A stretch of 64,000 nt of DNA from Eledone cirrhosa (Eukaryota), in contig OZ024743.1 in assembly GCA_964016885.1 (NCBI GenBank), positions 5,022,001-5,086,000 on the forward strand. The letters are read 5' to 3'. The position numbers and the translations under genes were made by a program. Shown piece by piece: positions 55-64,000 of the stretch (the stretch's first letter is position 1; each line of letters opens with the position of its first letter). The notes beneath the pieces were generated by a model. That model searched no databases and had not been told where the DNA came from. It saw only the letters and a program-made list of their open reading frames with translations.

Positions 55-370
55 TAATGGTTTCTGATTTAGGCACAAGGCCAACAATTTGGGGGGAGGG
101 GAAGGGAAAGTCAATGAAATCGACCCCAGTACATTACTGGTACTTTATTTTATCGACCCTGTAAGGATAAACACAAATAATTGTTTCTACTTTAAGCACA
201 AGGCCAGCAATAACCCAGTGCATTACTGGTACTTTATTATATCGACCCCGTAAGGATGAAAGGCAAAGTCAACCTCGGCGGGATTTGAACTCAGATCGTA
301 AAGGGACGTAACTCTATACTGGAAAGCATGGCGTCCGATCCTCTATCGATACTGCACATCCACCGCCCTT
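55..370 (-). mobile_element. tRNA-derived SINE, two nested copies (partial copy inserted at tail of a full copy)
   Basis: Reverse complement carries B box GAGTTCAAATCC, core GCCTTTCATCCTTACGGGGTCGATA and tail GGCCTTGTGC..GAAAC.ATTATT; TAAACACAAATAAT is repeated at ~45 and ~168, flanking the partial copy. Confidence 0.85.
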
Positions 371-989: not shown

Positions 990-1182
990 TAATTGTTTCT
1001 ACTATTGGCACAAGCCCAGCAAATTACCCAGTACATTACTGGTACTTTATTTTATCGACCCCGTAAGGATGAAAGGCAAAGTTAACCTCGGCGGGATTTG
1101 AACTCAGAATGGCAAGGGCCGTAACTCTATGCGTCAAAGCATGGCGTCCGACCCTCTACCGATACTGCCAATTCACCGCCCA
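990..1182 (-). mobile_element. tRNA-derived SINE, full length
   Basis: Same A box (TGGCAGTATCGG), B box, core and tail; flanked by TTATATATAAT direct repeat. Confidence 0.88.
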
Positions 1183-5877: not shown

Positions 5878-6819
5878 AACTAAGGAAAATTAACAGAGGG
5901 TAAGACAACGGATGAAAACAGGGCAAAACAAAATCAATTTTTTAAGGGAAACCTTAAATTGTTGTGGTTTTTAAAATAAAAATACAAACGAAAAATACAG
6001 AACTCCAGGGTCATCGGCCCTAGAGGTGGACTTTAGCAGTTTCGACCCCTACCAACGGTACTACTAGTACACCTTGGGTCACAGCGTCTGACACAAGATA
6101 AACGCCAGTGAAATAAGGGACATATATTCATGTATATATGCATATATATATATGTGTGTGTGTGTCACAGTCGAGGGTATAGACCAACATACGGAATGAC
6201 GAGATAACATATGTTGTATGTGGGTGGAGTGTATAGGAGACCGTGTGAATGTGTGAGTATGTAAATAGATGCATGTTTATTTATGTATGCACGTGTGTGT
6301 GTTTGTGTATGCGTGCGTGTGTATGTGTGCGTTTGCATGTGTGTGTGTGTGTGTGTGCACGAAAGCGTTCTTTGCCTCTGTACCTCATTTAGTTCTGTAT
6401 GTGCGCTCTCCCTTCAATCCACATGTTAATTCTCTCTGTACCACAATAACTCTCTCTCTCTCTTCTCTCTCTTTCTTCTTCCCTCCCTCTCTCTCTTTCT
6501 TCCTTTCTCTCTCTCCCTCTCTCTACTACCCCTCTCCATATATGATGTATTATGTCTAAATTAGGCGCATGGCCAAAACTATGGGGACGCGATTAAACAG
6601 TTAAATTGACCCCAGTACATAACTGGAAGGATGAAATACAAAGTTGATTCAGCAGGAAACGAACACAGGACATAAAGATCCAGAGCTAATACAAGGTCGA
6701 TGACGACGACGACGACGACGACGACAAAGAAGAAGAAGAAGAAGAAGAATATCTCGATCAGTGATAAACAAGTAGATATTGGCGACACATGAAAACGAAA
6801 TCATAATCATTATAATTCG

Positions 6820-7233
6820 GGAGGATTGGCAGTACCGGTAGAGGGTCGGACACCATACTTTGCAGCATACAGCCCTTTATGATCTGAGTTCAAATCCCGC
6901 CGAGGTTAACTTTGCCTTTCATCCTTACGAGGTCGATAAAATAAAGTACCAGTCACGCACTGGGGTCGATTTAATCAACTTTCCCCGCCCCCAAAATTGC
7001 TGGCCCTGTGCCTATATAAGAAACCATTATAATTATTATGAAAGTGTCGGTAGAGGGTCGGACGCCATGCTTTGACGCATAGAGTTACGGCCCTTGCCAT
7101 TCTGAGTTCAAATCCCGTCGAGGTTAACTTTGCCTTTCATCCTTACGGGGTCGATAAAATAAAGTACCAGTAATGTACTGGGTAATTGCTGGCCTTGTGC
7201 TAAAAGTAGAAACAATTATAATTATTATGAAAG
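6820..7233 (+). mobile_element. Two tandem SINE copies (second 5'-truncated, inserted in tail of first)
   Basis: B boxes, cores and tails present; 19-bp TSD ATTATAATTATTATGAAAG at 7026-7044 and 7215-7233. Confidence 0.88.
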
Positions 7234-8308: not shown

Positions 8309-8602
8309 AAATATACATGAACTGTTTAGCGACAACCACTTTCAGCATGAAACTGCCGAAGTTATTTCTTAGACCTAAGACGAAGGATCACCTACAAATG
8401 TTCATACATGCATTAATATGTGCGCACGTGAGTGTGTGCGTGAGTGTGTGCGTGAGTGTGTGCGTGAGTGAGTGTGTGCGTGAGTGTGTGCGCGATACGT
8501 GAACAAATGAAGATGTAGCTGCACACACAATGTCATCACGACCCTCTGTGAAGACAGTTCTCTTCACTTTACCATTTATTAGACCTCTGGTTATTATTAT
8601 TT

Positions 8603-8791
8603 GTGGTGGATTGGCAGAATCGGTAGAGAGTCGGACGCCTTGCTTTGCAGCAAAGAGTTACGGCCCTTTATGGTCTGAGTTCAAATCCTGCCGAGGTTAA
8701 CTTTGCCTTCCGGGGGTCGGTGAAATAAAGTACCAGTAATACACTGGGATAATTCCTGACCTTGTGCCAAAAGTAGAAACAATTATTTGTG
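8603..8791 (+). mobile_element. tRNA-derived SINE
   Basis: A/B boxes, core, tail; TSD ATTATTTGTG (8596-8605, 8782-8791). Confidence 0.88.
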
Positions 8792-9053
8792 ATGTGTACG
8801 GCGTTAGAATTATAAAATCGTTAGAGCGTCGGACCAAAATCCCTAGTGTTCAGCTAGAAGGCTTTATGTTCTAAGTCAGAACCTTACGGTTCGCATGACT
8901 CGCTTTTATACCCATATTGTCATTCAATAAAATCACTCGTGAATTATTGTCGTCTTCGTTTACCTGACCTTACCTGTGCCCCCCTGCACAAGGTAAAGCT
9001 GTCCTTGGAAAAATTACTTCGTTCCCTCCTCCCCAGAGTATTTTCATTTGAGT

Positions 9054-11029
9054 TTGTTGTCTGGTGGTATAACAACTGTACAGTAGGTATCTTTATTGTT
9101 GTCTGGTGGTATAACAACTGTACAGTAGGTATCTTTATTGTTGTCTGGTGGTATAACAACTGTACAGTAGGTATCTTTATTGTTGTCTGGTGGTATAACA
9201 ACTGTACAGTAGGTATCTTTATTGTTGTCTGGTGGTATAACAACTGTACAGTAGGTATCTTTATTGTTGTCTGGTGGTATAACAACTGTACAGTAGGTAT
9301 CTTTATTGTTGTCTGGTGGTATAACAACTGTACAGTAGGTATCTTTATTGTTGTCTGGTGGTATAACAACTGTACAGTAGGTATCTTTATTGTTGTCTGG
9401 TGGTATAACAACTGTACAGTAGGTATCTTTATTGTTGTCTGGTGGTATAACAACTGTACAGTAGGTATCTTTATTGTTGTCTGGTGGTATAACAACTGTA
9501 CAGTAGGTATCTTTATTGTTGTCTGGTGGTATAACAACTGTACAGTAGGTATCTTTATTGTTGTCTGGTGGTATAACAACTGTACAGTAGGTATCTTTAT
9601 TGTTGTCTGGTGGTATAACAACTGTACAGTAGGTATCTTTATTGTTGTCTGGTGGTATAACAACTGTACAGTAGGTATCTTTATTGTTGTCTGGTGGTAT
9701 AACAACTGTACAGTAGGTATCTTTATTGTTGTCTGGTGGTATAACAACTGTACAGTAGGTATCTTTATTGTTGTCTGGTGGTATAACAACTGTACAGTAG
9801 GTATCTTTATTGTTGTCTGGTGGTATAACAACTGTACAGTAGGTATCTTTATTGTTGTCTGGTGGTATAACAACTGTACAGTAGGTATCTTTATTGCTGT
9901 CTGGTGGTATAACAACTGTACAGTAGGTATCTTTATTGCTGTCTGGTGGTATAACAACTGTACAGTAGGTATCTTTATTGCTGTCTGGTGGTATAACAAC
10001 TGTACAGTAGGTATCTTTATTGCTGTCTGGTGGTATAACAACTGTACAGTAGGTATCTTTATTGCTGTCTGGTGGTATAACAACTGTACAGTAGGTATCT
10101 TTATTGTTGTCTGGTGGTATAACAACTGTACAGTAGGTATCTTTATTGCTGTCTGGTGGTATAACAACTGTACAGTAGGTATCTTTATTGCTGTCTGGTG
10201 GTATAACAACTGTACAGTAGGTATCTTTATTGCTGTCTGGTGGTATAACAACTGTACAGTAGGTATCTTTATTGCTGTCTGGTGGTATAACAACTGTACA
10301 GTAGGTATCTTTATTGCTGTCTGGTGGTATAACAACTGTACAGTAGGTATCTTTATTGTTGTCTGGTGGTATAACAACTGTACAGTAGGTATCTTTATTG
10401 CTGTCTGGTGGTATAACAACTGTACAGTAGGTATCTTTATTGTTGTCTGGTGGTATAACAACTGTACAGTAGGTATCTTTATTGCTGTCTGGTGGTATAA
10501 CAACTGTACAGTAGGTATCTTTATTGTTGTCTGGTGGTATAACAACTGTACAGTAGGTATCTTTATTGTTGTCTGGTGGTATAACAACTGTACAGTAGGT
10601 ATCTTTATTGTTGTCTGGTGGTATAACAACTGTACAGTAGGTATCTTTATTGCTGTCTGGTGGTATAACAACTGTACAGTAGGTATCTTTATTGCTGTTT
10701 GGTGGTATAACAACTGTACAGTAGGTATCTTTATTGCTGTCTGGTGGTATAACAACTGTACAGTAGGTATCTTTATTGTTGTCTGGTGGTATAACAACTG
10801 TACAGTAGGTATCTTTATTGTTGTCTGGTGGTATAACAACTGTACAGTAGGTATCTTTATTGTTGTCTGGTGGTATAACAACTGTACAGTAGGTATCTTT
10901 ATTGCTGTCTGGTGGTATAACAACTGTACAGTAGGTATCTTTATTGTTGTCTGGTGGTATAACAACTGTACAGTAGGTATCTTTATTGTTGTCTGGTGGT
11001 ATAACAACTGTACAGTAGGTATCTTTATT
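9054..11029. repeat. 42-bp tandem array, 47 copies (TTGTTGTCTGGTGGTATAACAACTGTACAGTAGGTATCTTTA)
   Basis: 1976 bp = 47x42+2; units nearly identical, one T/C polymorphic site; no spacers. Confidence 0.97.
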
Positions 11030-11309
11030 CGATAATAACGTTTATTTAATTATTTGTGATAAATTGTGTGAATTATTATTATTAGAATTAGGCCAAAAGT
11101 GGTTTAAAAAAACAAATGGCAACCCTGATCTAACAACGTCGTTAGAAACCTGGTTTTATATAATTTATTCACAATTATCATATTTTATCGCATTACTGTA
11201 TTTGCATTTACATTTGTTTTCGTTGTTTCTTATTTCTTCATTCTGATTATTATACTTTTTGTTCTTTTTCCTTTCCATAAATCTTTTTTGTTTGAACAAA
11301 AACAAGCCC

Positions 11310-18481: not shown

Positions 18482-21400
18482 ATGGAGGTCGAACCACCCG
18501 ACCTTCACAAGACCCGGGAGGTAAGTAAACCTTCCCTCTCTTTCTCTCTCTTAGCTTACCAATATGGCCATATTAAGAGTAGGAAGTTTAAATGTTCGCG
18601 GCCTGGGGTCACCCTGGAAGCAGGGTCGCCTGCTCAACGACCTCCGGTCGCTGGAAATGGATGTGATTGCCGTAAACGAGACCAGAATTTCCGACACGCG
18701 CGCACTAGCCTCCATTTTCGACGACTATCAGATCTACGCATCTGTTAGCAGGCCGGGAATGGGGGGGTGGGGGGAGGGCAGTGCTGTTTAGGAAAGGACT
18801 GGATCTCGAGGTAAGGTCGATCTTCCGGGACCCGGACGGTAAGTTGGTGGTCTTGGATGTGAGCAGTAGCGAAGGTGGTGCCTTTAGACTGCTGGCCGTC
18901 TACGCCCCTACAGGAGCCGGACGACCTGACTTCTTTAGGCGCCTGGGGACCTTTCTGGGTACGTCTCGCCCTTTACTGTTAGCGGGGGACTGGAATGGCA
19001 TCTTAGACGCACGCTGGGATTGTGTGGGAGTAGCCGATAGGAGCAGGAGGGATCATCAACAACAGATGGTGGGGGGTTCTCAAAAGAGAGATTAGAGTAA
19101 CTTCGATAGAGTTCAGCAAAGAACTAGCGTTAGAGAAAAATAGAAAGGAGGGGGATCTGGTAGATAAGTTAGACGAGGCTATTTGTAGTGGCATCGCAAC
19201 TGACGTGCTAGCGGCGAGAATGGCATTAGACCATTTCTTCAATGCCAAACACGAAGGTTGCATTGTCAGAGATAAGGCGCGTGCGCTGAGAAACGAGGGA
19301 ACTAAAGTTGTTCGATGGGCCCGCGTGGCGGAGGCGCAGCGTGGTAATAAAACCACAATTCGGTCTTTGGCGGACCGAGACGGACACGAGATAACCGATT
19401 CCAAGCGGATGTGTGAGGCCTTTCGCCAGCACTTTGCTCGGTTGTTCAGGGAGAGTGGCGAGTCAGAGAGAGTAGCGGATTTCAGTCCCTACCTTGACGG
19501 CTTGCCGCGCATCTCGACGGTCGACGCTGAGCGCTGCGAAAGGCCGATTACTTCAGCCGAAATTCAGGACGCCCTTGTCGGCTGCATGAGGCGCAAGTCA
19601 CCCGGTTTGGATGGCCTGCCCTACGAGCTTTACATAAATATGCCAGACTTGTTCTCCGAACTCCTCGAAGCACTCTACTGCAACTGGCAGCAGAATGGGA
19701 GTATTCCCAGTTCTGTAAGCAGGGGAGTGGTGACGCTGATAAGGAAAGACGAGAACAAGAGGGATACATTAGACAACTTCAGGCCCATAACTCTTCTCAA
19801 CACAGAGTTTAAGATTTTGGCCAAGGTGTTAGCAAAGAGATTGGCGCTTGTCGTCGAGGATTTGGTTGGGGAGGCGCAAACTTGCGCAATCCCAGCCAGG
19901 TCCATACACGACAATCTCCACCTCATGCGATACATCATAGAGAGGGTAGGGTGTAAACCTGGCTTCGGTGGGGCACTGATCAATTTAGATCAATCGAAAG
20001 CATTCGATAGGGTCGACCATCGGTATCTGGAGTTTGTCCTCAAAGCAGCTGGCTTCGGCCCTGTCTTTAGAAGCTGGATCGTTGCAATGCACAGCGGCAC
20101 ACGCTCGGTGGTCAAGGTTAATGGCCACCTCTCGGAACCATTTCGGCTCTCCCGATCGGTCCGTCAAGGGTGCCCTCTCTCTTTCCTTCTGTACGTATTG
20201 ACTCTCGAGCCTTTACTGCGGAAGCTGGAGCTGTTGCAGGGCATCCCGCTCGAACCGGAACGTGGAAGGGCGGTCTCGGCTTATGCGGACGACATCACCG
20301 TGATGGTGTCGAACACCTCAGAAATCGAGGTGGTCGGCACCTTATTGAAGGAATATGAAAGGTTGACAGGAGCCAAACTTAACCCGGAAAAGTCGGTGGG
20401 CTTGCAGCTCGGAACCTGGAGAGGCAGGCCCATGCCGTCCAACAGCGTCGTGGGGCGCTGGACGGACGGACCGGTAAAGTTGCTCGGGGTTTGGTTCGGA
20501 CCCGACCTCCAGGTGGAAAAGAATTGGGACGAGGTAACGAGCAGAGTAACCAGTCTCACCCAAAAATGGGCTGGGAGGAAGCTATCACTGAAAGGTCGCG
20601 CGGAGGTGGCGAATGCGTACATCGCGTCCGTCATCTACTACCGCCTAACCGTCGTGCCTTGCCCCCGTCCGCGCCTCGTCAAGTTGGAACGACTCCTCTT
20701 CAAATTCTTGTGGAGAGGACAAGTTCCGTTGGTGAGGCGGTCCATCTGCTGCCAGCACCCTCTACGCGGAGGTATGAGGGTGGCTAATGATGCGCAGACA
20801 TGCGTTGAGGCTGCGACATCTCCAGATATTCTGCCTCAATGGTGAACAGGTGTGGTCGCCGTTTATCAGACGGGCCTTTCCGTAGCTCATTTCTTTGACT
20901 GAGCTGCAGTCCTGGGTCAAGAAGAGACCGAGACTGGGTGACTGGCACCTGGAATGTTGCCAGGCACTCACTGCCCTCTACCAAGCGGGCAATGCGATCA
21001 GTGGAACTTCCACTCTCGAGTTCTATAGAGGATTAGTGGTGGGCAAGTGCGATGACGCACTCGGAGAAGCTTTGGGCCTCGACGAAGTCGAACTGACCAG
21101 TCTGTACCGGAGGACTTTTGAGCCGGGGACGATGGACAATTTCCAGAAATCCCTCGCTTGGCAGTGCTACCGGGGGGCACTGCCGGTTCGGGATAAACTC
21201 TACAGGCACGGAAGTGCTGTCAGACGGACCTGCTCAAGATGCGCACAGAACGACGAAACCGTTCTGCACGCACTTGTCCAATGTCCGTGCATTACTGATT
21301 GTGGAGTTATGTCGAACAGCTACTGTCACGTGTGGAACGAATCCGGCTATCGGCCGAGTCCATAGTGAAGATCGAGCCGCCACCTTCCTTAGGTCAGGAA

Positions 21401-21943
21401 GAGCAGGAAATTTTCCTCTGTCTGGTGGCAGTTGCGAAAGGGATTATATGGTGGACCAGGTTGAAAGGACTAAAGACAGATACTTTTCTCTTCGGCCAAT
21501 CCCTCATCAACTTCTTCAAGTTTCACCTGGAAAGGAAGGTGAGGGTGGAGAGAGAAGTGCTGCCCCCCAGTACATTTGCTAAAAGGTGGGTGAATGTGGC
21601 GAGAATGGCTCGTGTGAATGGGCCTACTCTGACCATGCGCCTATAGGCTGGCTAACTTGAGGAGAGGGGTGCTCTCCCTGGGTGCCCTAGAAGCGCAGGG
21701 TGGTTCAGGATTGGTGGGGTACCCAAATCACCCCAGGGTCGTCCACCCCCTATCGGGGAATTTATTTTGTTATATTTATGCATAGTTTATTTTATATTTT
21801 TATATTTTCATTGTTAAATTAGTCTTGCCATTGTGCACTTTTACTCGACCTTATTGTAAACCCCCACTGTCCCTGTCTTTGTATTGTCCCCTACATGTCG
21901 GCCCTGGTGGCTAATAAATGAAATCATTATTATTATTATTATT
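18482..21943 (+). mobile_element. 5'-truncated, degenerate L1/Tx1-clade LINE (last codons of ORF1, broken ORF2, 3' UTR, (ATT)n tail)
   Basis: Colinear with 24019-27790; ~340-bp deletion near 19050, several frameshifts, in-frame TAG near 20883; preceded by (ATT)7. Confidence 0.95.
19205..20845 (+). pseudogene. Reverse transcriptase segment of degenerate ORF2
   Basis: KSPGLDG, FRPITLLN, DQSKAFD, QGCPLS, YADD motifs; reading frame broken at both ends. Confidence 0.9.
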
Positions 21944-22155
21944 GACGAAAGTGGATGTACGTTTTTTGAAGCTCCGTGAGTAAGCAATGTTTTGAGGATT
22001 AATTGTAGAGAATTGTTTATTTTTTGTACCGCTGAAGCATTATAAGACATTAATTTGTATCCTGTGAAGGAATAACTCATAATATTTGGGCCTTTTGGCC
22101 CAAATATTTGAACTTTATTTTGAAAAAAAAATAATAATTTTTTTCTCAAAAAAAC

Positions 22156-24066
22156 ATGGCGGAGCCACGCCCCCTAGAGGCGGGTCTGCTGTCGTGCAAC
22201 GGCGACTTGAGCGTTGAGAGGAGAGGTGAGGCGAGGAGCGCCACCAACACGAATGTGAGCAGCGACAGTGCCAGCACCAACGGGCCGAGCGGCGCGGAAG
22301 GTGGTAACAGCGACAACACCAACACCAACAAGCCGAACAGCGCAGAAGGTGGTAATAGCGAGAGCACCAACAAAACGAACAGCACAGAGAGTAATAGTAG
22401 CGACAGCAGCAGCACCAACAAGGCCAACAGCACAGAAGGTAACCACGACACAGGGGAGAACAACAACAGCAATAGCAGCAGCAACACCAACAAGAACAAC
22501 AACAGTGACAACACCAACAAGAACACTTTCGCTGCTGTGGCAGCGGCTAAAAGGAGACCATGCTACAGCATCGACTTAACCAACAGAGAGGAAAAGTTGG
22601 CCCAGGCCTGGAAAATCATAAATCAAGAGCAGACCTGGGCAAACTTAACTGTCCCGGCAGAAGCCATTGAGGCAGTGGAAAAAAGAACGGTGCATTTCAG
22701 ATGCATCTCAGTAGAGACAAAGAGGGCAGCGATAATCGCCCAAGCTGACATAGAAGCCGCACTGAAATACATCAGAGAGGACACAGACTTCATAGAGAGG
22801 GGCAGGCAATACGGCACCGTTTCGGTGCTGTTCAAGTCTGAAGCCCTCGCTGTGAAGCATTCAATGACCCCTTGCAAAACCAGCAAGGTCATAATGTACC
22901 CCTCCCACATGGGAAAACGAATAGCACGTGTGCGCATTCCCAGGATTCCACCAGGACTTGATATGTGGTGGCTCCTGGGTTGCGTAATCGTGGAAGGAAC
23001 GGATACAGTCCCGGTAGAGGCAACGAGAACTGCCAGGGACGACTGGTCCGGGGTTGATCTGGAGATACTGCTCCAAATCAGACCCGAAAACGTGAAAGCA
23101 ATCCCGGACCACATCCGCCTCCAAAACGGGAGGGTGTTGCATATAATGACTGAGGGCAAAAGTCCGCATTGTTTCCTTTGTGGGGAAACGACACACTTGC
23201 GAGCCTTCTGCCCTCAACTGCCGAAAAGCGCAAGGGGTCGAAAGATTCCACTGCTGGCGACGCCGGGACAAGGACCACCAGCAACACCGTCAACAATGGA
23301 ACCACCAAAATTGCACACCCAGGGGGGAAACGAGGAAAGCTCTCCCATTCCCCCTCCCCCCAAAAATACACACACGAACAAGAACATAAACACTCACTCA
23401 GACACAAACACGCTCACAGCCACAGACCCCTCATCCTCCAGCAGTGAAGATGAGGGAAAACCAAAGTCCCCCAAAATACAAAAAACAAAACACAAAAAAA
23501 AAAGAAATCCACAAAGCACAAACACCCCCACAAAAGAAAATACACACACCACCCACACAAACATTTTCCCCACAGCATCACCAACACAACCACCAAAATC
23601 CCCCAAACGCAAACAAGCTAAACAGACACAAGAACAAATAGACACACAAACATCAGAAACTACAGACACCCCACCCACAACAAACGCAGACACAATAGAA
23701 ACAACACTAACAAAGCTATCACCACCACAATCACACGAACAAATAAAACCCGAGCAACAAAACATTAAAAACTTCGTGCTTGCCAGAAGGGCCAACACGG
23801 AATTGATGGCCCATGTAGCACGAAGCACAAACATCGAAAAAGACGGGGAAACATTTGAAGCGAGCACATTTCGCGTACCAGATAATTTGCTTCTGATGCG
23901 AATGTCGCTCGCTTCATACAAAGAAATTCGAAAGAGCTTTCCTCGGGATGTGGGAACCCCGAACGTAAAACCCACGTCAAGACTATTAAAGGGGTTCCCA
24001 AAAGAAACCCCACAAACCATGGAGGTCGAACCACCCGACCTTCACAAGACCCCGGAAGGTAAGTAA
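22156..24066 (+). CDS. LINE ORF1 protein (636 aa) with CCHC zinc knuckle
   Basis: ATG-initiated open frame; CFLCGETTHLRAFC (CX2CX4HX4C) at ~23170-23211; low-complexity N- and C-terminal arms; directly upstream of ORF2. Confidence 0.9.
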   Translation: MAEPRPLEAGLLSCNGDLSVERRGEARSATNTNVSSDSASTNGPSGAEGGNSDNTNTNKPNSAEGGNSESTNKTNSTESNSSDSSSTNKANSTEGNHDTGENNNSNSSSNTNKNNNSDNTNKNTFAAVAAAKRRPCYSIDLTNREEKLAQAWKIINQEQTWANLTVPAEAIEAVEKRTVHFRCISVETKRAAIIAQADIEAALKYIREDTDFIERGRQYGTVSVLFKSEALAVKHSMTPCKTSKVIMYPSHMGKRIARVRIPRIPPGLDMWWLLGCVIVEGTDTVPVEATRTARDDWSGVDLEILLQIRPENVKAIPDHIRLQNGRVLHIMTEGKSPHCFLCGETTHLRAFCPQLPKSARGRKIPLLATPGQGPPATPSTMEPPKLHTQGGNEESSPIPPPPKNTHTNKNINTHSDTNTLTATDPSSSSSEDEGKPKSPKIQKTKHKKKRNPQSTNTPTKENTHTTHTNIFPTASPTQPPKSPKRKQAKQTQEQIDTQTSETTDTPPTTNADTIETTLTKLSPPQSHEQIKPEQQNIKNFVLARRANTELMAHVARSTNIEKDGETFEASTFRVPDNLLLMRMSLASYKEIRKSFPRDVGTPNVKPTSRLLKGFPKETPQTMEVEPPDLHKTPEGK

Positions 24067-24095
24067 ACCTTTCCTCTCCCATTCATCCTGCCAGC

Positions 24096-27000
24096 ATGGC
24101 CATAAGAGTAGGAAGTTTAAATGTTCGTGGCCTGGGGTCGCCCTGGAAGCAAGGTCACTTGCTCAACGACCTCAGGTCACTAGGAATGGATGTAATTGCC
24201 ATCAGCGAGACCAGAATTTCCGACACACGCGCACTGGCGCCGATTTTCGACGATTATCAGATCTTTGCATCTGTTAGTCGGCCGGGAATGGGAGGTGGAG
24301 TGGCTGTGCTGTTTAGGAAATGTCTGGATCTCGAGGTAAGGTCAATCTTCCGGGATCCTGACGGAAAGTTGGTGGTCCTGGACGTGAGCAATAGCGAAGG
24401 TGGTGCCTTTAGACTGGTGGCCGTCTACGCCCCTACTGGGGCCGGTCGGCCGGACTTCTTTAGGCGCCTGGAAAACTTTCTGCTTACGTCTCGCCCTTTA
24501 CTGTTAATAGGGGATTGGAATGGCATCTTAGAAGCACGCTGGGATTGTGTGGGAGTATCTGATAGGAGCGGGGGGTGCAAAAGCCTCAAGTACCTGATCA
24601 GCCAGTTTCAACTGTCTGACAGGTACCGACTAGATTTCCCTAATGCGCCAGTATGGACCTGGACCAATCGCATAGGGTCATCTAGATCGTACATAGATAG
24701 GATTTTCATTAGGAAAAGAGATAGAAATAGTGTAGGATGTCCACATTTTAAAACGGTTGCCTATTCAGATCACAAGCTTGTGATCTGTATGGTCGACCTA
24801 GATAAGACACGTAGGTTAGGACCTAGCTACTGGAAGCTAAACATGTCGTTTCCGGCACGTAAAGCTTACAGGGACCGGGTCAACAACTTAGTTAAGCAAA
24901 AGTTGACAGGGGGGGTTGTCAACAACAGGTGGTGGGGGGCACTCAAAAGAGAGATTAGAGCAACCTCGATAGGATTTAGCAAAGAAGTAGCAATAGAGAA
25001 AAATAGAAAGGAGGAGGGGCTGATAGCTAAGTTAGACGAGGCTATTTGTAGTGGCATTGCAACAGACGTGCTAGCGGCGAGAATGGCACTAGACCATTTC
25101 TTCAATGCGAAACACGAAGGTTGCATTGTCAGAGCTAAGGCGCGTGCTCTGAGGAACGAGGGAACCAAAGCTGCCCGATGGGCTCGCTTTGCAGAGACGC
25201 AGCGTGGAAATAAAACCACAATTCGGTCTTTGACGGATCGAGATGGACACGAACTGAGCGATTCCAAGCGGATGTGTGAGGCCTTTCGCCAGCACTTTGC
25301 TCGATTGTTCGGGAGGATGGGTGAGTCGGAGACGGCGGCGGACTTCAGTCCCTACCTCGACGGCTTGCCACGCCTCTCGACGGCCGACGCTGAGCGCTGC
25401 GAAGAGCCGATAACATCAGCCGAAATTCAGGACGCCCTTGTCGGCTGCTCGAGTCGCAAGTCACCCGGTTTGGATGGTCTGCCCTACGAGCTTTACGTAA
25501 ATATGCCAGACTTGTTCTCCGATCTCCTCGAAGCGCTCTACTGCAACTGGCAGCAGAACGGGAGCATTCCCAGTTCTGTGAGCCGTGGCGTAGTGACGCT
25601 GATAAGGAAAGACGAGAACAAGAGGGACACACTAGATAATTTCAGGCCCATAACCCTGCTCAACACAGAGTTTAAGATTTTGGCCAAGGTGTTAGCGAAA
25701 AGGTTGGCGCTTGTCGTCAAAGATTTGGTTGGGGAGGCGCAAACTTGCGCAATCCCGACCAGGTCCATACACGACAACCTCCACCTCATGCGATACATCA
25801 TAGAGAGGGTTGGGTGCAAACCTGGCTTCGGTGGGGCTCTGATCAATTTAGATCAATCGAAAGCATTCGATAGGGTCGACCATCGGTACTTGGAGGCTGT
25901 CCTCGAGGCGGCTGGCTTCGGCCCCGTCTTCAGAAGCTGGATCGCTGCAATGTACAGCGGCATCCGCTCGGTGGTCAAAGTTAATGGCCACCTCTCGGAA
26001 CCGTTTCAGATCTCTCGATCGGTCCGTCAAGGGTGCCCTCTCTCCTCACTTCTGTACGTATTGACTCTTGAGCCTCTACTGCGGAAGCTGGAGTTGTTGC
26101 AGGGCATCCCGCTCGAACCGGGACGTAGAAAGGCTGCGTCCGCTTATGCGGACGACATCACCGTGATGGTGTCGGACACCTCGGAAATCGAGGTGATCCG
26201 CACCCATTTGGAGGAATATGAAAGGTTGACGGGAGCAAAACTTAACCCGGAAAAGTCGGTGGGCTTGCAGCTCGGCACCTGGAGAGGCAAGTCCATGCCG
26301 TCCAACAGCGTCGTTGGGCGCTGGACAGACGGACCGGTAAAGTTGCTCGGGGTTTGGTTCGGACCAGACCTCCAGGTGGATAAGAATTGGGACGAGGTGA
26401 CGAGCAGGATAGCCAACCTCACCCAGAAATGGGCTGAGAGAAAGCTATCACTGAAAGGGCGGGCGGAGGTGGCGAACGCGTACATCGCGTCCGTCATCTA
26501 CTACCGCCTGACCGTCGTGCCTTGCCCCCGTCCACGCCTCGCCAATTTGGAACGGCTCCTTTTCAAATTTTTGTGGAGGGGACGGGTCCCGTTGGTGAGG
26601 CGGTCCATCTGCTGCCAGCACCCTCTTCGTGGAGGGCTGGGCATGCCGTGGCTAATGATGCGCAGACATGCGCTGAGGCTGCGACATCTCCAGATATTTT
26701 GCCTAAACGGTGAACAGGTGTGGTCGCCGTTTGTTAGACGGGCCTTTCCGCAGCTCATCTCTTTGACTGAGCTGCAGTCCTGGGTCAAGAAGAGACCGAG
26801 ACTGGGCGACTGGCATCTGGAATGTTGCCAGGCGCTCACTGCACTCTGCAAGGTGGGCAATGCGGTCAGTGGAACTTCCACTCAAGATTTCTATAGAGGA
26901 TTAGTGGAGGGCAAGTGCGATGACGTACTAGGAGAGGCTCTGGGCGTCAACGAAGTAGAACTGACCAGTATGTTCCGGAGGACTTTCGAGCCGGGGACGA

Positions 27001-27515
27001 TGGATAACTTCCAGAAATCCCTCGCTTGGCAGTGCTACCGGGGGGCGCTGCCGGTTCGAGATAAACTCTACAGGCACGGAAGTGCTGTCAGACGAACCTG
27101 CCCGAGATGCGCGCAGAGCGACGAAACCGTTCTGCACGCACTCGTCCAGTGTCCGTGCATTGCTGACTTGTGGGGTTATGTCGAACAGCTATTGTCGCGT
27201 GTAGAACGGATCCGGCTATCGTCCGAGTCCATAGTGAAGATTGACCCGCCGCCTTCTTTTGGTCAGGAAGGGCAGGCAATTTTCCTCTGCCTGGTGGCAG
27301 TAGCGAAAGAGGTTGCATGGTGGACCAGGTTGAAAGGACTGAAGACAGACACTTTTCTCTTCGGCCAATCCCTCATCAACTTCTTCAAGTTTCACTTGGA
27401 AAGGAAGGTGAGGGTGGAGAGAGAAGTGCTGCCCCCCAGTACATTTACTGAAAGGTGGGTGAATGTGGCGAGAATGGCCCGCGTGAGTGGGCCTACTCTG
27501 ATCATGCGCCTGTAG
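24096..27515 (+). CDS. LINE ORF2 protein (1139 aa): APE endonuclease, reverse transcriptase, C-terminal zinc motif
   Basis: SLNVRGL, SET, GDWN, IDRIF, SDH (APE); YWKLN (L1/Tx1); QGCPLS, YADD (RT); CPRC..H...C. Confidence 0.96.
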   Translation: MAIRVGSLNVRGLGSPWKQGHLLNDLRSLGMDVIAISETRISDTRALAPIFDDYQIFASVSRPGMGGGVAVLFRKCLDLEVRSIFRDPDGKLVVLDVSNSEGGAFRLVAVYAPTGAGRPDFFRRLENFLLTSRPLLLIGDWNGILEARWDCVGVSDRSGGCKSLKYLISQFQLSDRYRLDFPNAPVWTWTNRIGSSRSYIDRIFIRKRDRNSVGCPHFKTVAYSDHKLVICMVDLDKTRRLGPSYWKLNMSFPARKAYRDRVNNLVKQKLTGGVVNNRWWGALKREIRATSIGFSKEVAIEKNRKEEGLIAKLDEAICSGIATDVLAARMALDHFFNAKHEGCIVRAKARALRNEGTKAARWARFAETQRGNKTTIRSLTDRDGHELSDSKRMCEAFRQHFARLFGRMGESETAADFSPYLDGLPRLSTADAERCEEPITSAEIQDALVGCSSRKSPGLDGLPYELYVNMPDLFSDLLEALYCNWQQNGSIPSSVSRGVVTLIRKDENKRDTLDNFRPITLLNTEFKILAKVLAKRLALVVKDLVGEAQTCAIPTRSIHDNLHLMRYIIERVGCKPGFGGALINLDQSKAFDRVDHRYLEAVLEAAGFGPVFRSWIAAMYSGIRSVVKVNGHLSEPFQISRSVRQGCPLSSLLYVLTLEPLLRKLELLQGIPLEPGRRKAASAYADDITVMVSDTSEIEVIRTHLEEYERLTGAKLNPEKSVGLQLGTWRGKSMPSNSVVGRWTDGPVKLLGVWFGPDLQVDKNWDEVTSRIANLTQKWAERKLSLKGRAEVANAYIASVIYYRLTVVPCPRPRLANLERLLFKFLWRGRVPLVRRSICCQHPLRGGLGMPWLMMRRHALRLRHLQIFCLNGEQVWSPFVRRAFPQLISLTELQSWVKKRPRLGDWHLECCQALTALCKVGNAVSGTSTQDFYRGLVEGKCDDVLGEALGVNEVELTSMFRRTFEPGTMDNFQKSLAWQCYRGALPVRDKLYRHGSAVRRTCPRCAQSDETVLHALVQCPCIADLWGYVEQLLSRVERIRLSSESIVKIDPPPSFGQEGQAIFLCLVAVAKEVAWWTRLKGLKTDTFLFGQSLINFFKFHLERKVRVEREVLPPSTFTERWVNVARMARVSGPTLIMRL

Positions 27516-27963
27516 GCTGGTGAATTCGAGAAGGAGAGGGGTGCCCTTCCCGGGTGCCCTAGGAGCGTCGGGTGGCTCAGGACTGGTGGGGTGCTTGAGT
27601 CAACCCTGGGTGGTGATCCCTCTTATTGGGGAACTTTCATTGTTGTATTTTTATTGTTATTTTGTTTTTGTTTTTTTTGTTATTTATACTTACTCGATCT
27701 CTATGTAAACCCCCACTGTCCCTGTCTATTGTGTTGTCCCCTATATGTCGGCCCTTGTGGCCAATAAATGAAATCATTATTATTATTATTATATATATAT
27801 ACAGTATATACACACACACACACATATATATATATCTATATACATACTCACACACACACACACGCTCGCGCGCGCGCGCATACACTTACAGCAAGGCACG
27901 CGTGGAGATATCTACATATATTTATATTCAGGCCCAGAAATATATGGAGCATCTGGCTAGCTG

Positions 27964-41667: not shown

Positions 41668-42965
41668 CTGTGTCTGTGTCTGTGTGTGCGTGTGTGTGCG
41701 TGTGTGTGTGTGTGTGTGTAGCAGCTGCTGCTGCAACATGAGTAAAAGTTCTAATATGGGTGGCACTTGAGCTTTATGCAACTGATGTGTGTTTTGGAAA
41801 AATCGTCAGGGCCTTGTGTTATTTGTTCCAGGTCCTTGCATTCAGAGTTTAAATCCCACTGTAACCTACTTAGGTGGTAGACTTGATCGGTAACCTTCGA
41901 TAGCCAGGTTTATCAAACCTCTTCTTACAATTTCCCGGCCGTACCTCTGGTTTCAATAAACATCCTAACTACCAATCTTGGAGACCTTGAAAAAAATCAA
42001 GGGTCATCGACACCGCCTTTCTTCCTGACAAAGATATAAAATAAAGAAAATGACTAGTCTTGGGAAAGCAGGTTTGTCAAGGTAATAAACAGACAACGGC
42101 CATTTCCATGTATATTTCCTACTACTAGACACAGAGGGCGCTAGAGAGGGAAATAATGTCGGGAAGCGTCAAAATAAGGAGATAGATTTGTTAGCTGTAT
42201 ATTGTTATTGTGTTTGTATAAACTCTAATGGGCCCTGATAGAGCAGGTATAGGATCAAAGGCGTTCCTGTCAGATCATCACTTGCTAGATGTACCTATGA
42301 CTACATTATTTTATGTATCCTCCTCTTTTCCAGATATAGGAATGAGATTTGGCTGCAATTTCTAAGAATTCGAACATGTGTACATGTGTGAACGCATACT
42401 TATATATGTGTATGTATGTGTGTATGTGTATGTGTGTGTGTACACGTGCGAATGTGTGCGTTTCTGCATGTGCATTTGGGTGTGCGTATTAATGTGAGCT
42501 TGCATGTATGCGCATGTATTTACATGTATTTGTCGGCGTAAATGTGTGTGTGGGTGCGTGAACGTAGATACATTTGATAAAGGGAGTAAATTAATCGTTC
42601 AAACCTGGTCACAGCAGTTATGGGATTAAATTCAGAATCAATTAATAAACACAATAAATGAATATCAATGATATTATAGAATCATAATTATACAGCAATA
42701 TAGCCTCCTTCCTTTCCTGTAATTCCGGAGGGTGTCGGGGGGGCGCCGTTATGACATACGGCATTTTGGGGGCACTTTTTAAAACTGGGTGGAGCCCATC
42801 ACCTCTGCAGATCTGAATAGAGCAGATTTCTTCCAGAGAAGGATAGAGAATGAGCGAAAGAATGAAAGTGAAAAGGAGATATAGAAGAAGGATCGGATCG
42901 TCCAGTACTCGACTGATACTTTTCTTATTGACCTCGAAAAGATTAAAGGCAAATATGAACTCAAC

Positions 42966-43945
42966 GAGACTGGGCACCTGGCATCTGGAATGATGTCAAG
43001 CGCTCACTGCCCTCTACCAGCCGGGCAATGTGGCCAATGGGAATTCCACTCTAGAGTTCTATAAAGGACTAGTGGTAGAAAAGTGAGACGACGTTCACGA
43101 TGTGGCTCTGGGCGTCGACGAAATCGAACTGGCCAGTCTTTTCTGGAGAACTTTTGAACCGGGAACAATGGACAACTTTCAAAAGTCCCTGGCTTGGCCG
43201 TGCTACCCGAGGGTACTGTCGGTTCGAGATAAACTCTACAGGCATGAAAGTGCTGTCAGACGGACCTGTTCAAGATGCGTGCAGAACGATGAAGCCGTTC
43301 TGCACGCCCTCGTCCAATGTCCGTGCATTACTGATTTGTGGATTTTTGAACAGCTATTATCGCCTGTAGGACAGATCTAGCTATCGACCAAGTTCAGGGT
43401 GAAGTTCTTTTGACCGGTAAGGGCAGGCAGTTTTCTTCTGTCTTGTGGCTGTAGCGTAAGAGGTTGTGTGGTGGACGTGGCTGAAAGTACTAAATATAGG
43501 CACGTTTCTCTTCAGTCAAGCCCTCATCAACTTTTTCAAGTTTCATTTGAAAAGGAAGGAGAGGGTGGAGAGGGAAGCGCTGTCCTAAGTACATTTGTTA
43601 AAAGGTGGGTAAATGTAGCGAGGATAGCCCGAGTGAATAGTCCTACTCTGACCATGTGCCTGTAGACTGAATAGTTTGGAGAGGTGAGGGGCGCTCTCTT
43701 GGGCTGCTCTTGGAGAGTAGGGTTGTTTAGGATTTGTGGGGCTCCTAAATCACACCTACGTGGTACTCCCCATCCCCTATTGGGGAATTTTCATTGATAT
43801 ATACTTTGTTGTTTATTGTTACCTGTTATCTTTTTTTTACTCGCTTTTTTGTACCCCACCCCCACTGTCCCTGTTTTTTGGGGATTTATTGTCCGCTATG
43901 TAATGGCCCTTGTGGCCAATATAGAAATAATAATTAGTATTATCA
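42966..43945 (+). mobile_element. 5'-truncated older Tx1/L1 copy (ORF2 end, 3' UTR, tail)
   Basis: RTFEPGTMDNFQKSLAW, RWVNVARIARVNSPTLTMCL; ends GGCCCTTGTGGCCAATATAGAAATAATAATT. Confidence 0.9.
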
Positions 43946-44213
43946 TTATAGAAGAAGAAGAAGAAGAAGAAGAAGAAGAAGAAGAAGAAGAAGAAATATC
44001 ACCATTATCATCATCATCATCATTGACTGAATCGTTAGAGTCGGACAATATGCGTTGCGGTATTTATTCCGACTCTAGTTCTCGACTAAACTTTGCCTTT
44101 CATCCTTCCGGATAAAGTACCAGTGAACTACGGTGTTGGATATATTTGACTTTCCCTTACTCTTAAATAGTTAGACTTGTGCCTAAAATAAAAATCATTA
44201 CTATTATTATCGT

Positions 44214-44406
44214 GGTGAATTGGCAGTATCGGTAGAGCGTCAGACACCATGCTTTACAGCATAGTTACGGCCCTTTACGTTCTGGGTTCAAAGCCCGCCG
44301 AGGTTAGCTTTGCCTTTCATCATTACGGGGTCGATAAAATAAAGTACCAGTAATGCACTGAGATAATTGCTGGCCTTGTGCCAAAAGTAGAAACAATTAT
44401 TATCGT
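44214..44406 (+). mobile_element. tRNA-derived SINE inserted in tail of an older SINE (44025-44205)
   Basis: TSD ATTATTATCGT at 44203-44213 and 44396-44406. Confidence 0.88.
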
Positions 44407-45474: not shown

Positions 45475-46771
45475 TTTTATTTTTCAATCCGCATTTTAAC
45501 CTCCACATCCTACCCTCTACAGACAGACTAACAGACTTAAATATATACATACACACATAAACACACATGTACACACTCACGTGTGTTGGACCTCCGTTCG
45601 TTTTGAACAACGTGTGTTCTAGTTGTTTGATCAACAGTTCACCTGCTCGTAGAATTAACGTGTAAGTGACTGAGCATTCTCCAAACACGTTTACGATTAA
45701 CGCAATTCTCAGGGAGAATCAACATGACAGTGTGTAACAATATTGACCCTTTGAATTACAAATACTCTCAGGTCTTGAATAATTGTCAACAGCCCCCCAC
45801 CCCAGCTTATTCATTTTAAAGATTTTTCCACCACCCCCACCTCACTTTTATCCCCCTCCCCGCTTCTTAAATGTTACTAATCTATCTTCAGGAAATTATA
45901 TTGTAGGTATTCATATCGATACAGTAGCTAGAGAATCTAATCATTTTATTTTACACTAAAAAAAACATTATATATGACAAAAAAGAACATTGCAAGAAAA
46001 ACCATATTTACTGATTTCCCAACCCCCAGTTTATAAGAACTCCCGATTCCTCCCCCCTCCCCCCTCCAGCCTTATAAGAATTTAAGCAAGTGTCCAAAAC
46101 CCCCTTATCCCGCTTATTCCACCCCCTATTATTTGGGACCCGAGAGTACAACTAACATTAGACGGCGGAGTGAACTGGAGCAACATGAAATAAAGTGTCT
46201 CGCTGAAGGACATAAAGTGCAGCTGGGAATCTACCTCACGATCTTACATACCTAAGCCGAACACCTTAACCACTAGGCTACGCACCTTCACACTACACTG
46301 CACACAATCTGTTCCTCCTTTCGTGACTTTCATCCGATGTCCTTGTGAGCAATAAAAGAAACCATTATCATTACCTGTAATGTCATATTCATCCGGCACC
46401 CTTGTCACTAATAAATGAAATCATTGATATTATTTTTTACAAAATTAAGGACCCCAATTTATTTATTTATGTTCATATCTATAACCCTAACCCTTAAACT
46501 TCTTCCTCAACTTTCTTTCTTTTTTCCGCATTAACTCCCTGGCTGTCGTAAAGCAATGGCGGTGGCGGTGGAGGTGACGGGACGTCATAATGTGTTGCTT
46601 GCTGCAGTGAAGTATGGCTGTAGTGGTGCGGAAAGGGGAGCTATAGAAAGGGAGAGGGGGGTAAAAGGGGAGATCCCTTCAGCCCACCCCCGAACAATAA
46701 GCGCAGTGTGGGAAAGTGGTCCCTAACCGACTCCCACCATGATTTTTATTTGTTTATATATTTGTGTTGAA

Positions 46772-51588: not shown

Positions 51589-52060
51589 CAGACCTGTCAA
51601 ATCTCCCCGTCCGACAGGGAGATCCCCCCACTGACTCTGGGTTGGGTGAGAGATGTCTTCTCTTGTGAAATGGGTATAGCTTTCATTATGTAAAATCGGG
51701 GTGGGCGGTGGATTGGCAGTATCAGTAGAGAGTCGGACGCCATGCTTTCCAGCATAGTTACGTCCCTTTACGATCTGAGTTCAAATCCCGCCGAGGTTGA
51801 CTTTGCCTTTCATCCTTACGGGGTCGATAAAATAAAGTACCAGTAATGTACTGGTTAATTGCTGGCCTTGTGCCTAAAGTAGAAACAATTATGTAAAATC
51901 GCTCCATTTTACCTCACTTCTCCCCGTTTTGGGGCACTTTTTTTCGTGGTACTCCCCGTTTTATTTGGCAGGTCTGTATACATTCATATAGTTAACATGG
52001 TACTCCCCGTTATATATGGCAGGTCTGTATACATTCATATAGTTATATTTGGCAGGTCTG
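51589..52060. mobile_element. MITE (TIR CAGACCTG(T/C)CAA) with triplicated right end, interrupted by a SINE; relative at ~12620-12742
   Basis: CAGACCTGTCAA at 51589; TGGCAGGTCTG three times 51966-52060; shared internal block with 12627-12715. Confidence 0.6.
51702..51901 (+). mobile_element. tRNA-derived SINE, full length
   Basis: 14-bp TSD ATTATGTAAAATCG at 51685-51698 and 51888-51901. Confidence 0.9.
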
Positions 52061-61669: not shown

Positions 61670-64000
61670 GACGAAAGTGGATGTACGTTTTTTGAAGCTC
61701 CGTGAGTAAGCAATTTTTGAGGATTAATTGTAGAGAATTGTTTATTTTTTGTACCGCTGAAGCATTATAAGACATTAATTTGTATCCTGTGAAGGAATAA
61801 CTCATAATATTTGGGCCTTTTGGCCCAAATATTTGAACTTTATTTTGAAAAAAAAATAATAATTTTTTTCTCAAAAAAACATGGCGGAGCCACGCCCCCT
61901 AGAGGCGGGTCTGCTGTCGTGCAACGGCGACTTGAGCGTTGAGAGGAGAGGTGAGGCGAGGAGCGCCACCAGCACGAATGTGAGCAGCGACAGTGCCAGC
62001 ACCAACGGGCCGAGCGGCGCGGAAGGTGGTAACAGCGACAACACCAACACCAACAAGCCGAACAGCGCAGAAGGTGGTAATAGCGAGAGCACCAACAAAA
62101 CGAACAGCACAAAGAGTAATAGTAGCGACAGCAACAGCACCAACAAGGCCAACAACACAGAGGGTAACCACGACACAGGGGAGAACAACAACAGCAATAG
62201 CAGCAGCAAAACCAACAAGAACAACAACAGTGACAACACCAACAAGAACACCTTCGCTGCTGTGGCAGCGGCTAAAAGGAGACCATGCTACAGCATCGAC
62301 TTAACCAACAGAGAGGAAAAGTTGGCCCAGGCCTGGAAAATCATAAATCAAGAGCAGACCTGGGCAAACTTAACTGTCCCGGCAGAAGCCATTGAGGCAG
62401 TGGAAAAAAGAACGGTGCATTTCAGATGCATCTCAGTAGAAACAAAGAGGGCAGCGATAATCGCCCAAGCTGATATAGAAGCCGCACTGAAATACATCAG
62501 AGAGGACACAGACTTCATAGAGAGGGGCAGGCAATACGGCACCGTTTCGGTGCTGTTCAAGTCTGAAGCCCTCGCTGTGAAGCATTCAATGACCCCTTGC
62601 AAAACCAGCAAGGTTATAATGTACCCCTCCCACATGGGAAAACGAATAGCACGTGTGCGCATTCCCAGGATTCCACCAGGACTTGATATGTGGTGGCTCC
62701 TGGGTTGCGTAATCGTGGAAGGAACGGATACAGTCCCGGTAGAGGCAACGAGAACTGCCAGGGACGACTGGTCCGGGGTTGATCTGGAGATACTGCTCCA
62801 AATCAGACCCGAAAACGTAAAAGCAATCCCGGACCACATCCGCCTCCAAAACGGGAGGGTGTTGCATATAATGACTGAGGGCAAAAGGCCGCATTGTTTC
62901 CTTTGTGGGGAAACGACACACTTGCGAGCCTTCTGCCCTCAACTGCCGAAAAGCGCAAGGGGTCGAAAGATTCCACTGCTGGCGACGCCGGGACAAGGAC
63001 CACCAGCAACACCGTCAACAATGGAACCACCAAAATTGCACACCCAGGGGGGAAACGAGGAAAGCTCTCCCATTCCCCCTCCCCCCCCCAAAATACACAC
63101 ACGAACAAGAACATAAACACTCACTCAGACACAAACACGCTCACAGCCACAGACCCCTCATCCTCCAGCAGTGAAGATGAGGGAAAACCAAAGTCCCCCA
63201 AAATACAAAAAACAAAACACAAAAAAAAAAGAAATCCACAAAGCACAAACACCCCCACAAAAGAAAATACACACACCACCCACACAAACATTTTCCCCAC
63301 AGCATCACCAACACAACCACCAAAATCCCCCAAACGCAAACAAGCTAGACAGACACAAGAACAAATAGACACACAAACATCAGAAACTACAGACACCCCA
63401 CCCACAACAAACGCAGACACAATAGAAACAACACTAACAAAGCTATCACCACCACAATCACACGAACAAATAAAACCCGAGCAACAAAACATTAAAAACT
63501 TCGTGCTTGCCAGAAGGGCCAACAAGGAATTGATGGCCCATGTAGCACGAAGCACAAACATCGAAAAAGACGGGGAAACATTTGAAGCGAGCACATTTCG
63601 CGTACCAGATAATTTGCTTCTGATGCGAATGTCGCTCGCTTCATACAAAGAAATTCGAAAGAGCTTTCCTCGGGATGTGGGAACCCCGAACGTAAAACCC
63701 ACGTCAAGACTATTAAAGGGGTTCCCAAAAGAAACCCCACAAACCATGGAGGTCGAACCACCCGACCTTCACAAGACCCCGGAAGGTAAGTAAACCTTTC
63801 CTCTCCCATTCATCCTGCCAGCATGGCCATAAGAGTAGGAAGTTTAAATGTTCGTGGCCTGGGGTCGCCCTGGAAGCAAGGTCACTTGCTCAACGACCTC
63901 AGGTCACTAGGAATGGATGTAATTGCCATCAGCGAGACCAGAATTTCCGACACACGCGCACTGGCGCCGATTTTCGACGATTATCAGATCTTTGCATCTG
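61670..64000 (+). mobile_element. Second young Tx1/L1 copy with complete 5' end (runs off window)
   Basis: Near-identical to 21944-24273; preceded by (ATT)5; ORF2 start at 63823. Confidence 0.95.
61881..63793 (+). CDS. LINE ORF1, frameshifted in a poly-C run at ~63081-63089
   Basis: 411-aa and 299-aa ORFs together reconstruct the 636-aa ORF1; shift lies in a homopolymer (possible sequencing error). Confidence 0.75.

Follow-up and report, generated by a model that had tools for sequence, protein, structure and literature searches.

An ATT-targeting lineage of Tx1-like LINEs probably mobilises the abundant tRNA-like SINE of Eledone cirrhosa. The likeness of the tails, the target sequence and strand, the length of the duplications and overlapping periods of activity together point to this lineage as the mobiliser. 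By analogy with better-known elements, we also lean, less firmly, towards a step in which the LINE ORF2 protein (ORF2p) recognises a hairpin that both 3′ tails could form; that one LINE family, here called A, was the source of most SINE copies is held with lower confidence than either the lineage or the hairpin step. The analysis covered a 64,000-nt stretch of DNA (the window; contig OZ024743.1 of assembly GCA_964016885.1), 990 kb sampled as 99 evenly spaced stretches of 10 kb each, and roughly 200 targeted loci.

The SINE family and the Tx1-like LINEs

The repeats of the 3.0-Gb genome comprise L1/Tx1-like, Dong/R4-like, RTE-like and Penelope-like elements together with the tRNA-like SINE, which gave 27 hits spanning 4,508 bases in the window and 196 hits covering 30,817 bases (3.1%) of the 990-kb sample. 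The element is short, non-coding, present in high copy number and flanked by target duplications. Its short type, about 185 nt long, is without the 28 nt just before the tail of the long type (about 215 nt); 59 short copies lie at a median of 6.2% from their consensus and 22 full long copies at 14.1% from theirs. Since the short-type 3′ end has at least 150,743 exact occurrences genome-wide and one 171-nt SINE stretch occurs in 1,594 identical copies, the family has spread recently. The head carries motifs like the A and B boxes about 65 nt apart, and neither ARAGORN nor Rfam found a tRNA or other RNA family in the element. The body appears to resemble the Deu/Nin domain; a literature search on the body motif returned primer matches only. 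Contigs of four sequencing runs contain both the SINE and the LINE, which is uninformative on mechanism. The features of the window are as follows.

6809..6817 and 7026-7034, plus strand: 5′ and 3′ copies of the 9-nt target duplication of the first SINE, read from the sequence
6819..7025, plus strand: long-type SINE of about 207 nt with pol III box-like head, conserved body and 3′ tail (30 local matches in the window)
7001..7013, plus strand: hairpin in the first SINE tail, stem 7001-7004/7010-7013, loop 7005-7009 with one change
7026..7044 and 7215..7233, plus strand: 5′ and 3′ copies of the 19-nt target duplication of the second SINE, the 5′ copy directly behind the last base of the first SINE
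7045..7214, plus strand: short-type SINE, 5′-truncated, at the 3′ junction of the first SINE
994..1182, minus strand: short-type SINE, 11-nt duplication at 1183-1193 and 983-993
8606..8781, plus strand: short-type SINE, 10-nt duplication at 8596 and 8782
44214..44395, plus strand: short-type SINE inserted in an older SINE's tail, with its 11-nt duplication at 44203 and 44396
51699..51887, plus strand: young short-type SINE, 14-nt duplication at 51685 and 51888
18482..21925, plus strand: family B LINE, older and 5′-truncated, in (ATT)n, its tail being the site of the intact family-A copy
21944..27775, plus strand: family A LINE, intact, full-length, L1/Tx1-like, with (ATT)n on both sides
22156..24066, plus strand: ORF1 of the intact LINE, 636 aa, CCHC zinc knuckle
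24096..27515, plus strand: ORF2 of the intact LINE, 1139 aa, with AP-type endonuclease, reverse transcriptase and C-terminal zinc motif (Pfam PF03372, PF00078, PF13966)
27750..27762, plus strand: hairpin in the LINE tail, its CTTGT loop (27754-27758) lying between the stem arms 27750-27753 and 27759-27762 and 17 nt ahead of the junction
42965..43929, plus strand: family E, old 3′ fragment of the same LINE lineage with the same hairpin
61670..64000, plus strand: another family-A LINE, running past the end of the window and preceded by (ATT)n

A preliminary description of this DNA had located SINEs at the first of these places, and a long-type (about 6819-7025) and a short-type copy (7045-7214) do lie there. 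All five duplications that it quoted are present at its coordinates (7026/7215, 8596/8782, 44203/44396, 51685/51888 and, on the minus strand, 983-993/1183-1193), and the LINE tail at 27738-27790 reads as it was given. The SINE tail that it quoted matches the long-type composite but not, letter for letter, the copy at 6820. Elsewhere in the window, positions 9000-11050 hold a 2-kb tandem array with a 39-nt unit and long open frames on both strands, and the second family-A copy has an ORF1 frameshift near 63116-63120. Two short isolated LINE-tail-like pieces at 46340-46430 (loop, A-rich spacer and ATT, with no LINE body upstream) are possibly extreme 5′ truncations or another non-autonomous element.

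We call the LINE lineage Tx1-like because of its domain layout and site specificity; the name does not derive from a tree that includes named references. The lineage has two ORFs, an AP endonuclease, a reverse transcriptase (RT), a C-terminal zinc motif, a relationship to L1 and family-specific targets, and among AP-endonuclease clades only Tx1 and R1 are said, in the accessible part of one survey, to have site-specific members (PMC6007223). The best solved relative of ORF2 is human L1 ORF2p (E 4.9e-57), with R2 at E 2.9e-22. Atlas look-alikes of ORF1 carry zf-CCHC and ZCCHC3-like domains (score 0.90-0.93), and Pfam returned no match for ORF1; as a lead only, the middle of this ORF (22156-24066) is like ZCCHC3-like RNA-binding and zinc-knuckle proteins (Atlas 0.90). 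Cluster look-ups and Atlas returned no Tx1 name. In an RT tree of 36 rows, which contained no named Tx1, all genome families formed one clade (100/99) among unnamed relatives and apart from RTE-like and Dong-like elements. Within it families A and B group with F and G (98/98) and C and D stand apart (99/97), so that ATT targeting is likely the older state.

Families A to D target (ATT)n and the old family E short ATT/AAT runs. The best 30 family-A copies share 99.6-100% identity along 1.65 kb, and each terminates in ATT repeats. From 40 5′-end hits, 20 full-length copies outside the arrays and other than the window copy were chosen, and 20/20 are flanked on either side by 3-20 ATT units. Exact ends of families A and B add up to 2,579. 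Family F occupies one minisatellite position in 29/30 copies, which are 99-100% alike and have the loop CTAGT (L240-L269; e.g. L175:6080-6330, minus strand), and family G occupies (ATCT)n with 15-nt duplications (L106, L123, L128, L138, L164). Clear LINE duplications measure 15, 15, 17 and about 21 nt, and are unmeasurable inside pure ATT tracts. Seven copies of the intact LINE form a head-to-tail array with 5.8-kb spacing and short ATT runs between them (L055-L060, C1:423385032-423420172); smaller LINE head-to-tail arrays occur on C2, C3, C4 and C10.

The 3′ tail and its putative hairpin

SINE and LINE have a 3′ element of about 25-37 nt in common, of which the short SINE type has only about 25 nt. 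The preliminary description had aligned the two tails with gaps; the similarity is real, but the tails align better without gaps when anchored on a CTTGT loop, the stem around it being swapped. Stem, loop and stem read GGCC-CTTGT-GGCC in family A, AACC-CTTGT-GGTT in family C, TGCC-CTAGT-GGCA in family F, and TGGC-CTTGT-GCCA or -GCCT in the SINE; the stem is followed by an A-rich spacer that ends in GAAA plus two bases. The loop-to-junction distance is 16 nt in the SINE (202/213 ends) and 16-17 nt in the LINEs. The CTTGT loop is common to the SINE and the ATT families, whereas family F mostly has CTAGT and family G has CCTGT in four of five copies.

With ATT removed, the last 40 nt of the long type scored 8 against the window LINE tail, compared with a mean of -9.4 and a maximum of 4 in a null set of 4,734 genomic windows upstream of ATTAT in which SINE-tail-like hits were masked. 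Against seven related families the long type scored 0-10, and against five Dong-like or RTE-like ends -4 to -12. The tail match first described therefore stands for the long type, but its CCCC is absent from the short type, the source of four of the five quoted duplications, which scored 1 by plain alignment with the window LINE (null maximum 3). A profile built from the seven LINE tails only gave 18.7 for the long type and 15.8 for the short type (null maximum 9.4), and just 5 of 364,165 positions sampled elsewhere reached 15.8. A loop-and-stem scan of the 990 kb and the window returned 99 SINE hits and 34 others, about 20 of which are tails of the LINE lineage.

Another LINE with a closer tail had been named in the preliminary description as what would overturn the pairing. 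Two Dong/R4-like and three RTE-like types were surveyed in the 990 kb (CR1/L2 and I-like 3′ ends were not recovered), and all five fail on both tail and target. That a family outside the sample, another L1/Tx1, a CR1/L2 or a Nimb element, is the true partner seems scarcely probable: a SINE-tail profile run over the 990 kb gave 10 hits outside SINEs, all weak or fragmentary, with no better non-SINE tail, and the hybrid of LINE upstream motif and SINE stem has one match genome-wide. On the other side, our reading covered 990 kb plus targeted loci, and Deu/Nin-type SINEs elsewhere use CR1, L2 or CR1-Zenon, according to the accessible parts of two papers (PMC3747384, PMC11481361). Since that hybrid has only its single match, no living family is the exact donor; a LINE carrying the exact SINE stem was sought genome-wide and not found.

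Across 10 distinct tails, three of the four stem pairs show two-sided changes and 90% of the cells are paired. None of 500 shuffles reached this level, a count that is not a probability because the 10 rows are hand-picked and related; slid controls paired at 17-60%, and the covariation concerns four pairs only, in a structure read from the same sequences. Folding, proposed earlier as a check, bore out the LINE side and not the SINE side: three LINE tails have the hairpin as their predicted best fold, as against 0/4 SINE tails. Tail folding energies were no better than those of shuffles (z -1.14 to 0.38), and the predicted pair probability of the hairpin within the whole SINE RNA is 0.03-0.10.

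These folds bear on an alternative with the same partner and relaxed recognition, in which the tail would be a remnant of an ancient capture, and ORF2p of the Tx1-like lineage would need an A-rich end and a few AUU bases but no hairpin. Apart from the disfavoured SINE hairpin, it could draw on the outer stem pair, formed in 98/213 SINE copies and thus mismatched in about half, and on crocodilian SINEU, which has been assigned to Tx1 with poly(A) and without a common tail, in the accessible text of that study (PMC4494074). We nevertheless regard it as unlikely, given the two-sided stem changes and the persistence of loop, spacing and pairing, both across LINE families that are 60-90% alike in ORF2 and differ in target and in the SINE through the 28-nt deletion just upstream. 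A further repeat, at L093:5925 and L119:7635 (minus strand), has an end like the A-rich spacer without the CTTGT hairpin.

Target site, strand and timing

The duplication test kept those 127 of the 196 SINE hits whose 3′ end was present and which lay away from locus ends. Target duplications flanked 62/127 copies, compared with 71/587 mismatched flank pairs in the 990 kb. The 5′ copy of the duplication, which is pure target DNA, starts with ATTAT in 39/57 non-simple cases, in line with the bias first read by eye in the window. Among the youngest SINEs, taken as the first 30 of the 1,594 identical copies, an exact duplication of at least 12 nt was found in 12/30 as against 1/870 mismatched pairs; duplications measured 9-22 nt in 17 of them and 8 nt in 4, with none in 9. 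In 16 of these 17 the duplication begins at the first base past the tail, and the base preceding it is C in 11, T in 5 and G in 1. After 191 SINE ends the sequence was RTTAW in 165, AATAAT in 1 and poly(A) in 0, and the targets of families F and G followed 0/191 and 1/191 ends, respectively. The SINE insertion site is Y|RTTAW.

The ATT that follows the SINE tail is mostly duplicated target. The ATT end that the preliminary description had counted as common to SINE and LINE thus holds as a target of the same ATT type, not as tail; an ATT run as part of the common tail is rejected, since duplications start at the first post-tail base. At least four ATT units followed 24/213 SINE ends versus 41/65 family-A-like and 15/23 family-D ends, and the SINE target is looser than that of the young LINEs. 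SINE and LINE duplications overlap in length, both measuring about 10-22 nt from the first base past the end.

An RTE-type or other untargeted LINE might instead copy the SINE, the ATT bias then reflecting pairing of the SINE RNA end with nicked DNA. RTE-like elements are abundant here and one such family has ATT runs in its 3′ UTR; in RTE pairs, as far as the accessible text of one study goes, the 3′ microsatellite is linked to the first duplicated base (PMC6007223), and a few SINE copies do show one to three bases between tail and duplication. However, alignment of RTE-like ends with the SINE tail yields scores of -7 to -12 (the end of the third family being its stop codon region), and RTE-like elements finish in ATG, TA or mixed repeats; no T-stretch lies ten bases upstream of SINE insertions, and SINE duplications of 18-22 nt occur, longer than the 7-15 nt that the same text gives for RTE. 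The tail match would also be left unexplained, and we consider an RTE-type partner very improbable. In an RTE-like family with C-terminal C2H2 fingers, the ATT runs of the 3′ UTR serve as landing sites for SINE and LINE (L101, L112, L114, L124).

Within 30 nt of a family A or B tail, 251 SINEs genome-wide lie on the same strand and 1 on the opposite strand; for one Dong-like tail the figures are 0 and 149, counts that are only roughly comparable because the two SINE motifs lie at different depths in the element. Strand follows from the ATT bias and so is not independent of it. Dong/R4-like elements are common and share AAT/ATT tracts with the SINE, which could make them its mobilisers in the same microsatellite, but their 31/31 ends are followed by AAT repeats, the opposite strand, and their tails are unrelated to the SINE tail. 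With no same-strand case against 149 opposite, mobilisation by Dong-like elements is rejected and keeps next to no probability. At 12/31 Dong-like ends a reversed Tx1-like tail follows, the lineages meeting tail to tail on opposite strands of AAT/ATT (L098, L108, L125, L146, L165).

SINEs were also described as landing repeatedly in the tails of older SINEs, and the sample agrees: a SINE or LINE tail is present in the 5′ flank of 28/127 SINEs versus 166/5,260 ATTAT sites. At L127 the order is long SINE, LINE fragment, short SINE, and one 17-nt site, with two to three changes, recurs between them; at L228 the duplication made by a family-D copy at the 5′ edge of a SINE measures about 21 nt and starts with ATTATTA. 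Tandem SINE arrays with the same short spacer between units (L149, L105, L120, L167, L171; window 56-364) could reflect repeated insertion or tandem duplication, and some SINE arrays may have arisen by the latter.

Activity of the two partners overlaps, with 1,594 identical SINE copies alongside LINE copies that are 99.6-100% alike. Most SINE copies are older than family A, and the youngest SINE subfamily alone overlaps with it; the age comparison suggested in the preliminary description thus gives overlap for the youngest SINEs, whereas the bulk (medians 6.2% and 14.1%) predate the family. Its proposal that the Tx1 family of the window mobilises the SINE is accordingly retained for the ATT-targeting lineage and given up for that family alone.

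The proposed partnership and known systems

SINE and lineage resemble each other at the 3′ end beyond chance, less strongly so for the short type; they also insert with the same signature, and their periods of activity overlap. In the mechanism that we propose, the SINE would be transcribed by pol III, as its box-like motifs suggest in spite of the lack of a tRNA match, and the LINE ORF2p would bind the SINE stem-loop, with specificity residing in the loop, by analogy with zebrafish L2 in the accessible text of its report (PMC4176376). The AAT strand would then be nicked and the RNA copied by target-primed reverse transcription. This mode of copying is established for such LINEs. Each insertion would restore the site behind the element, which would account for stacked SINEs and head-to-tail LINE arrays alike. 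The SINE tail was likely taken from an ancestor of the present LINE families; one family after another (old E-like, followed by C, D, B and A) may then have carried a SINE wave in turn.

A hairpin common to SINE and LINE in an animal Tx1-like lineage would support an old specific 3′ recognition in the L1 group that was lost in mammals. The partnership would also name the likely engine of a SINE occupying about 3% of the 3-Gb genome and account for its stacking in microsatellites. Near-identical copies of both partners and an intact LINE make the claim directly testable, and the sister families, whose tails are laid out alike but whose loops and targets differ, offer natural controls.

Shared-tail pairs are common for CR1, L2 and RTE (PMC3747384), as the preliminary description held of stringent pairs; in the accessible parts of two papers the L1 clade accounts for 3/58 catalogued pairs, from maize, sorghum and Chlamydomonas, none of them Tx1 or molluscan (PMC3747384, PMC3472496). 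Bivalve SINEs use CR1, CR1-Zenon, L2 and Nimb, in the portion of the study available (PMC11481361). The literature searched contained no Tx1 pair with a shared tail; repeat databases (Repbase, Dfam, SINEBase tables), supplements and subscription papers may already record one. We tentatively suggest, rating it slightly short of likely, that this is the first stringent-type animal Tx1 LINE/SINE pair, in which a still-spreading SINE keeps a five-base loop unique to the ATT families of a site-specific radiation, has a stem pair swapped relative to all living partners, shuns sister families whose loops and targets are different, and uses looser sites than its partner. If that is true, the strictness of targeting would be determined by the RNA and not by the endonuclease alone.

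The closest parallels, each drawn from the accessible text of the source, differ in informative parts. Crocodilian SINEU and Tx1-Mar (Kojima 2015, PMC4494074) likewise tie a SINE to Tx1 by common target preference, with tandem SINE insertions around the duplication; however, SINEU has U1/U2 heads and poly(A), and no LINE with its 3′ end was found, whereas the Eledone SINE has a tRNA-like head, no poly(A) and a shared 3′ motif. ZmSINE2/3 and the monocot L1 element LINE1-1_ZM (Ohshima 2012, PMC3472496) also have a short 3′ hairpin in which the loop is conserved and the stem varies with compensatory changes, but that LINE is a plant L1 that is not sequence-specific and about 50 nt are shared, compared with an animal, site-specific lineage and 25-37 nt here. 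UnaL2/UnaSINE and ZfL2-1/ZfL2-2 appear alike in that the loop is read specifically and the stem is exchangeable; in these L2-clade elements loop-specific, stem-tolerant recognition was demonstrated experimentally for zebrafish L2, whereas for the Eledone pair it is proposed and the SINE hairpin is weak (PMC4176376).

The Tx1 elements Kibi, in (TC)n, and Koshi, in (TTC)n, are likewise AP-endonuclease LINEs of microsatellites in which related families occupy different targets; the accessible text names no SINE partner for them (PMC4494074), and the lineage here targets (ATT)n, (ATCT)n and a minisatellite. In octopuses, tRNA-Deu SINEs and L1-Tx1 LINEs are similarly abundant or recently active, and the accessible parts of these accounts name neither partner nor target site (PMC8967140, PMC13282606). 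The repeat content found here matches the description that the same sources give for octopuses.
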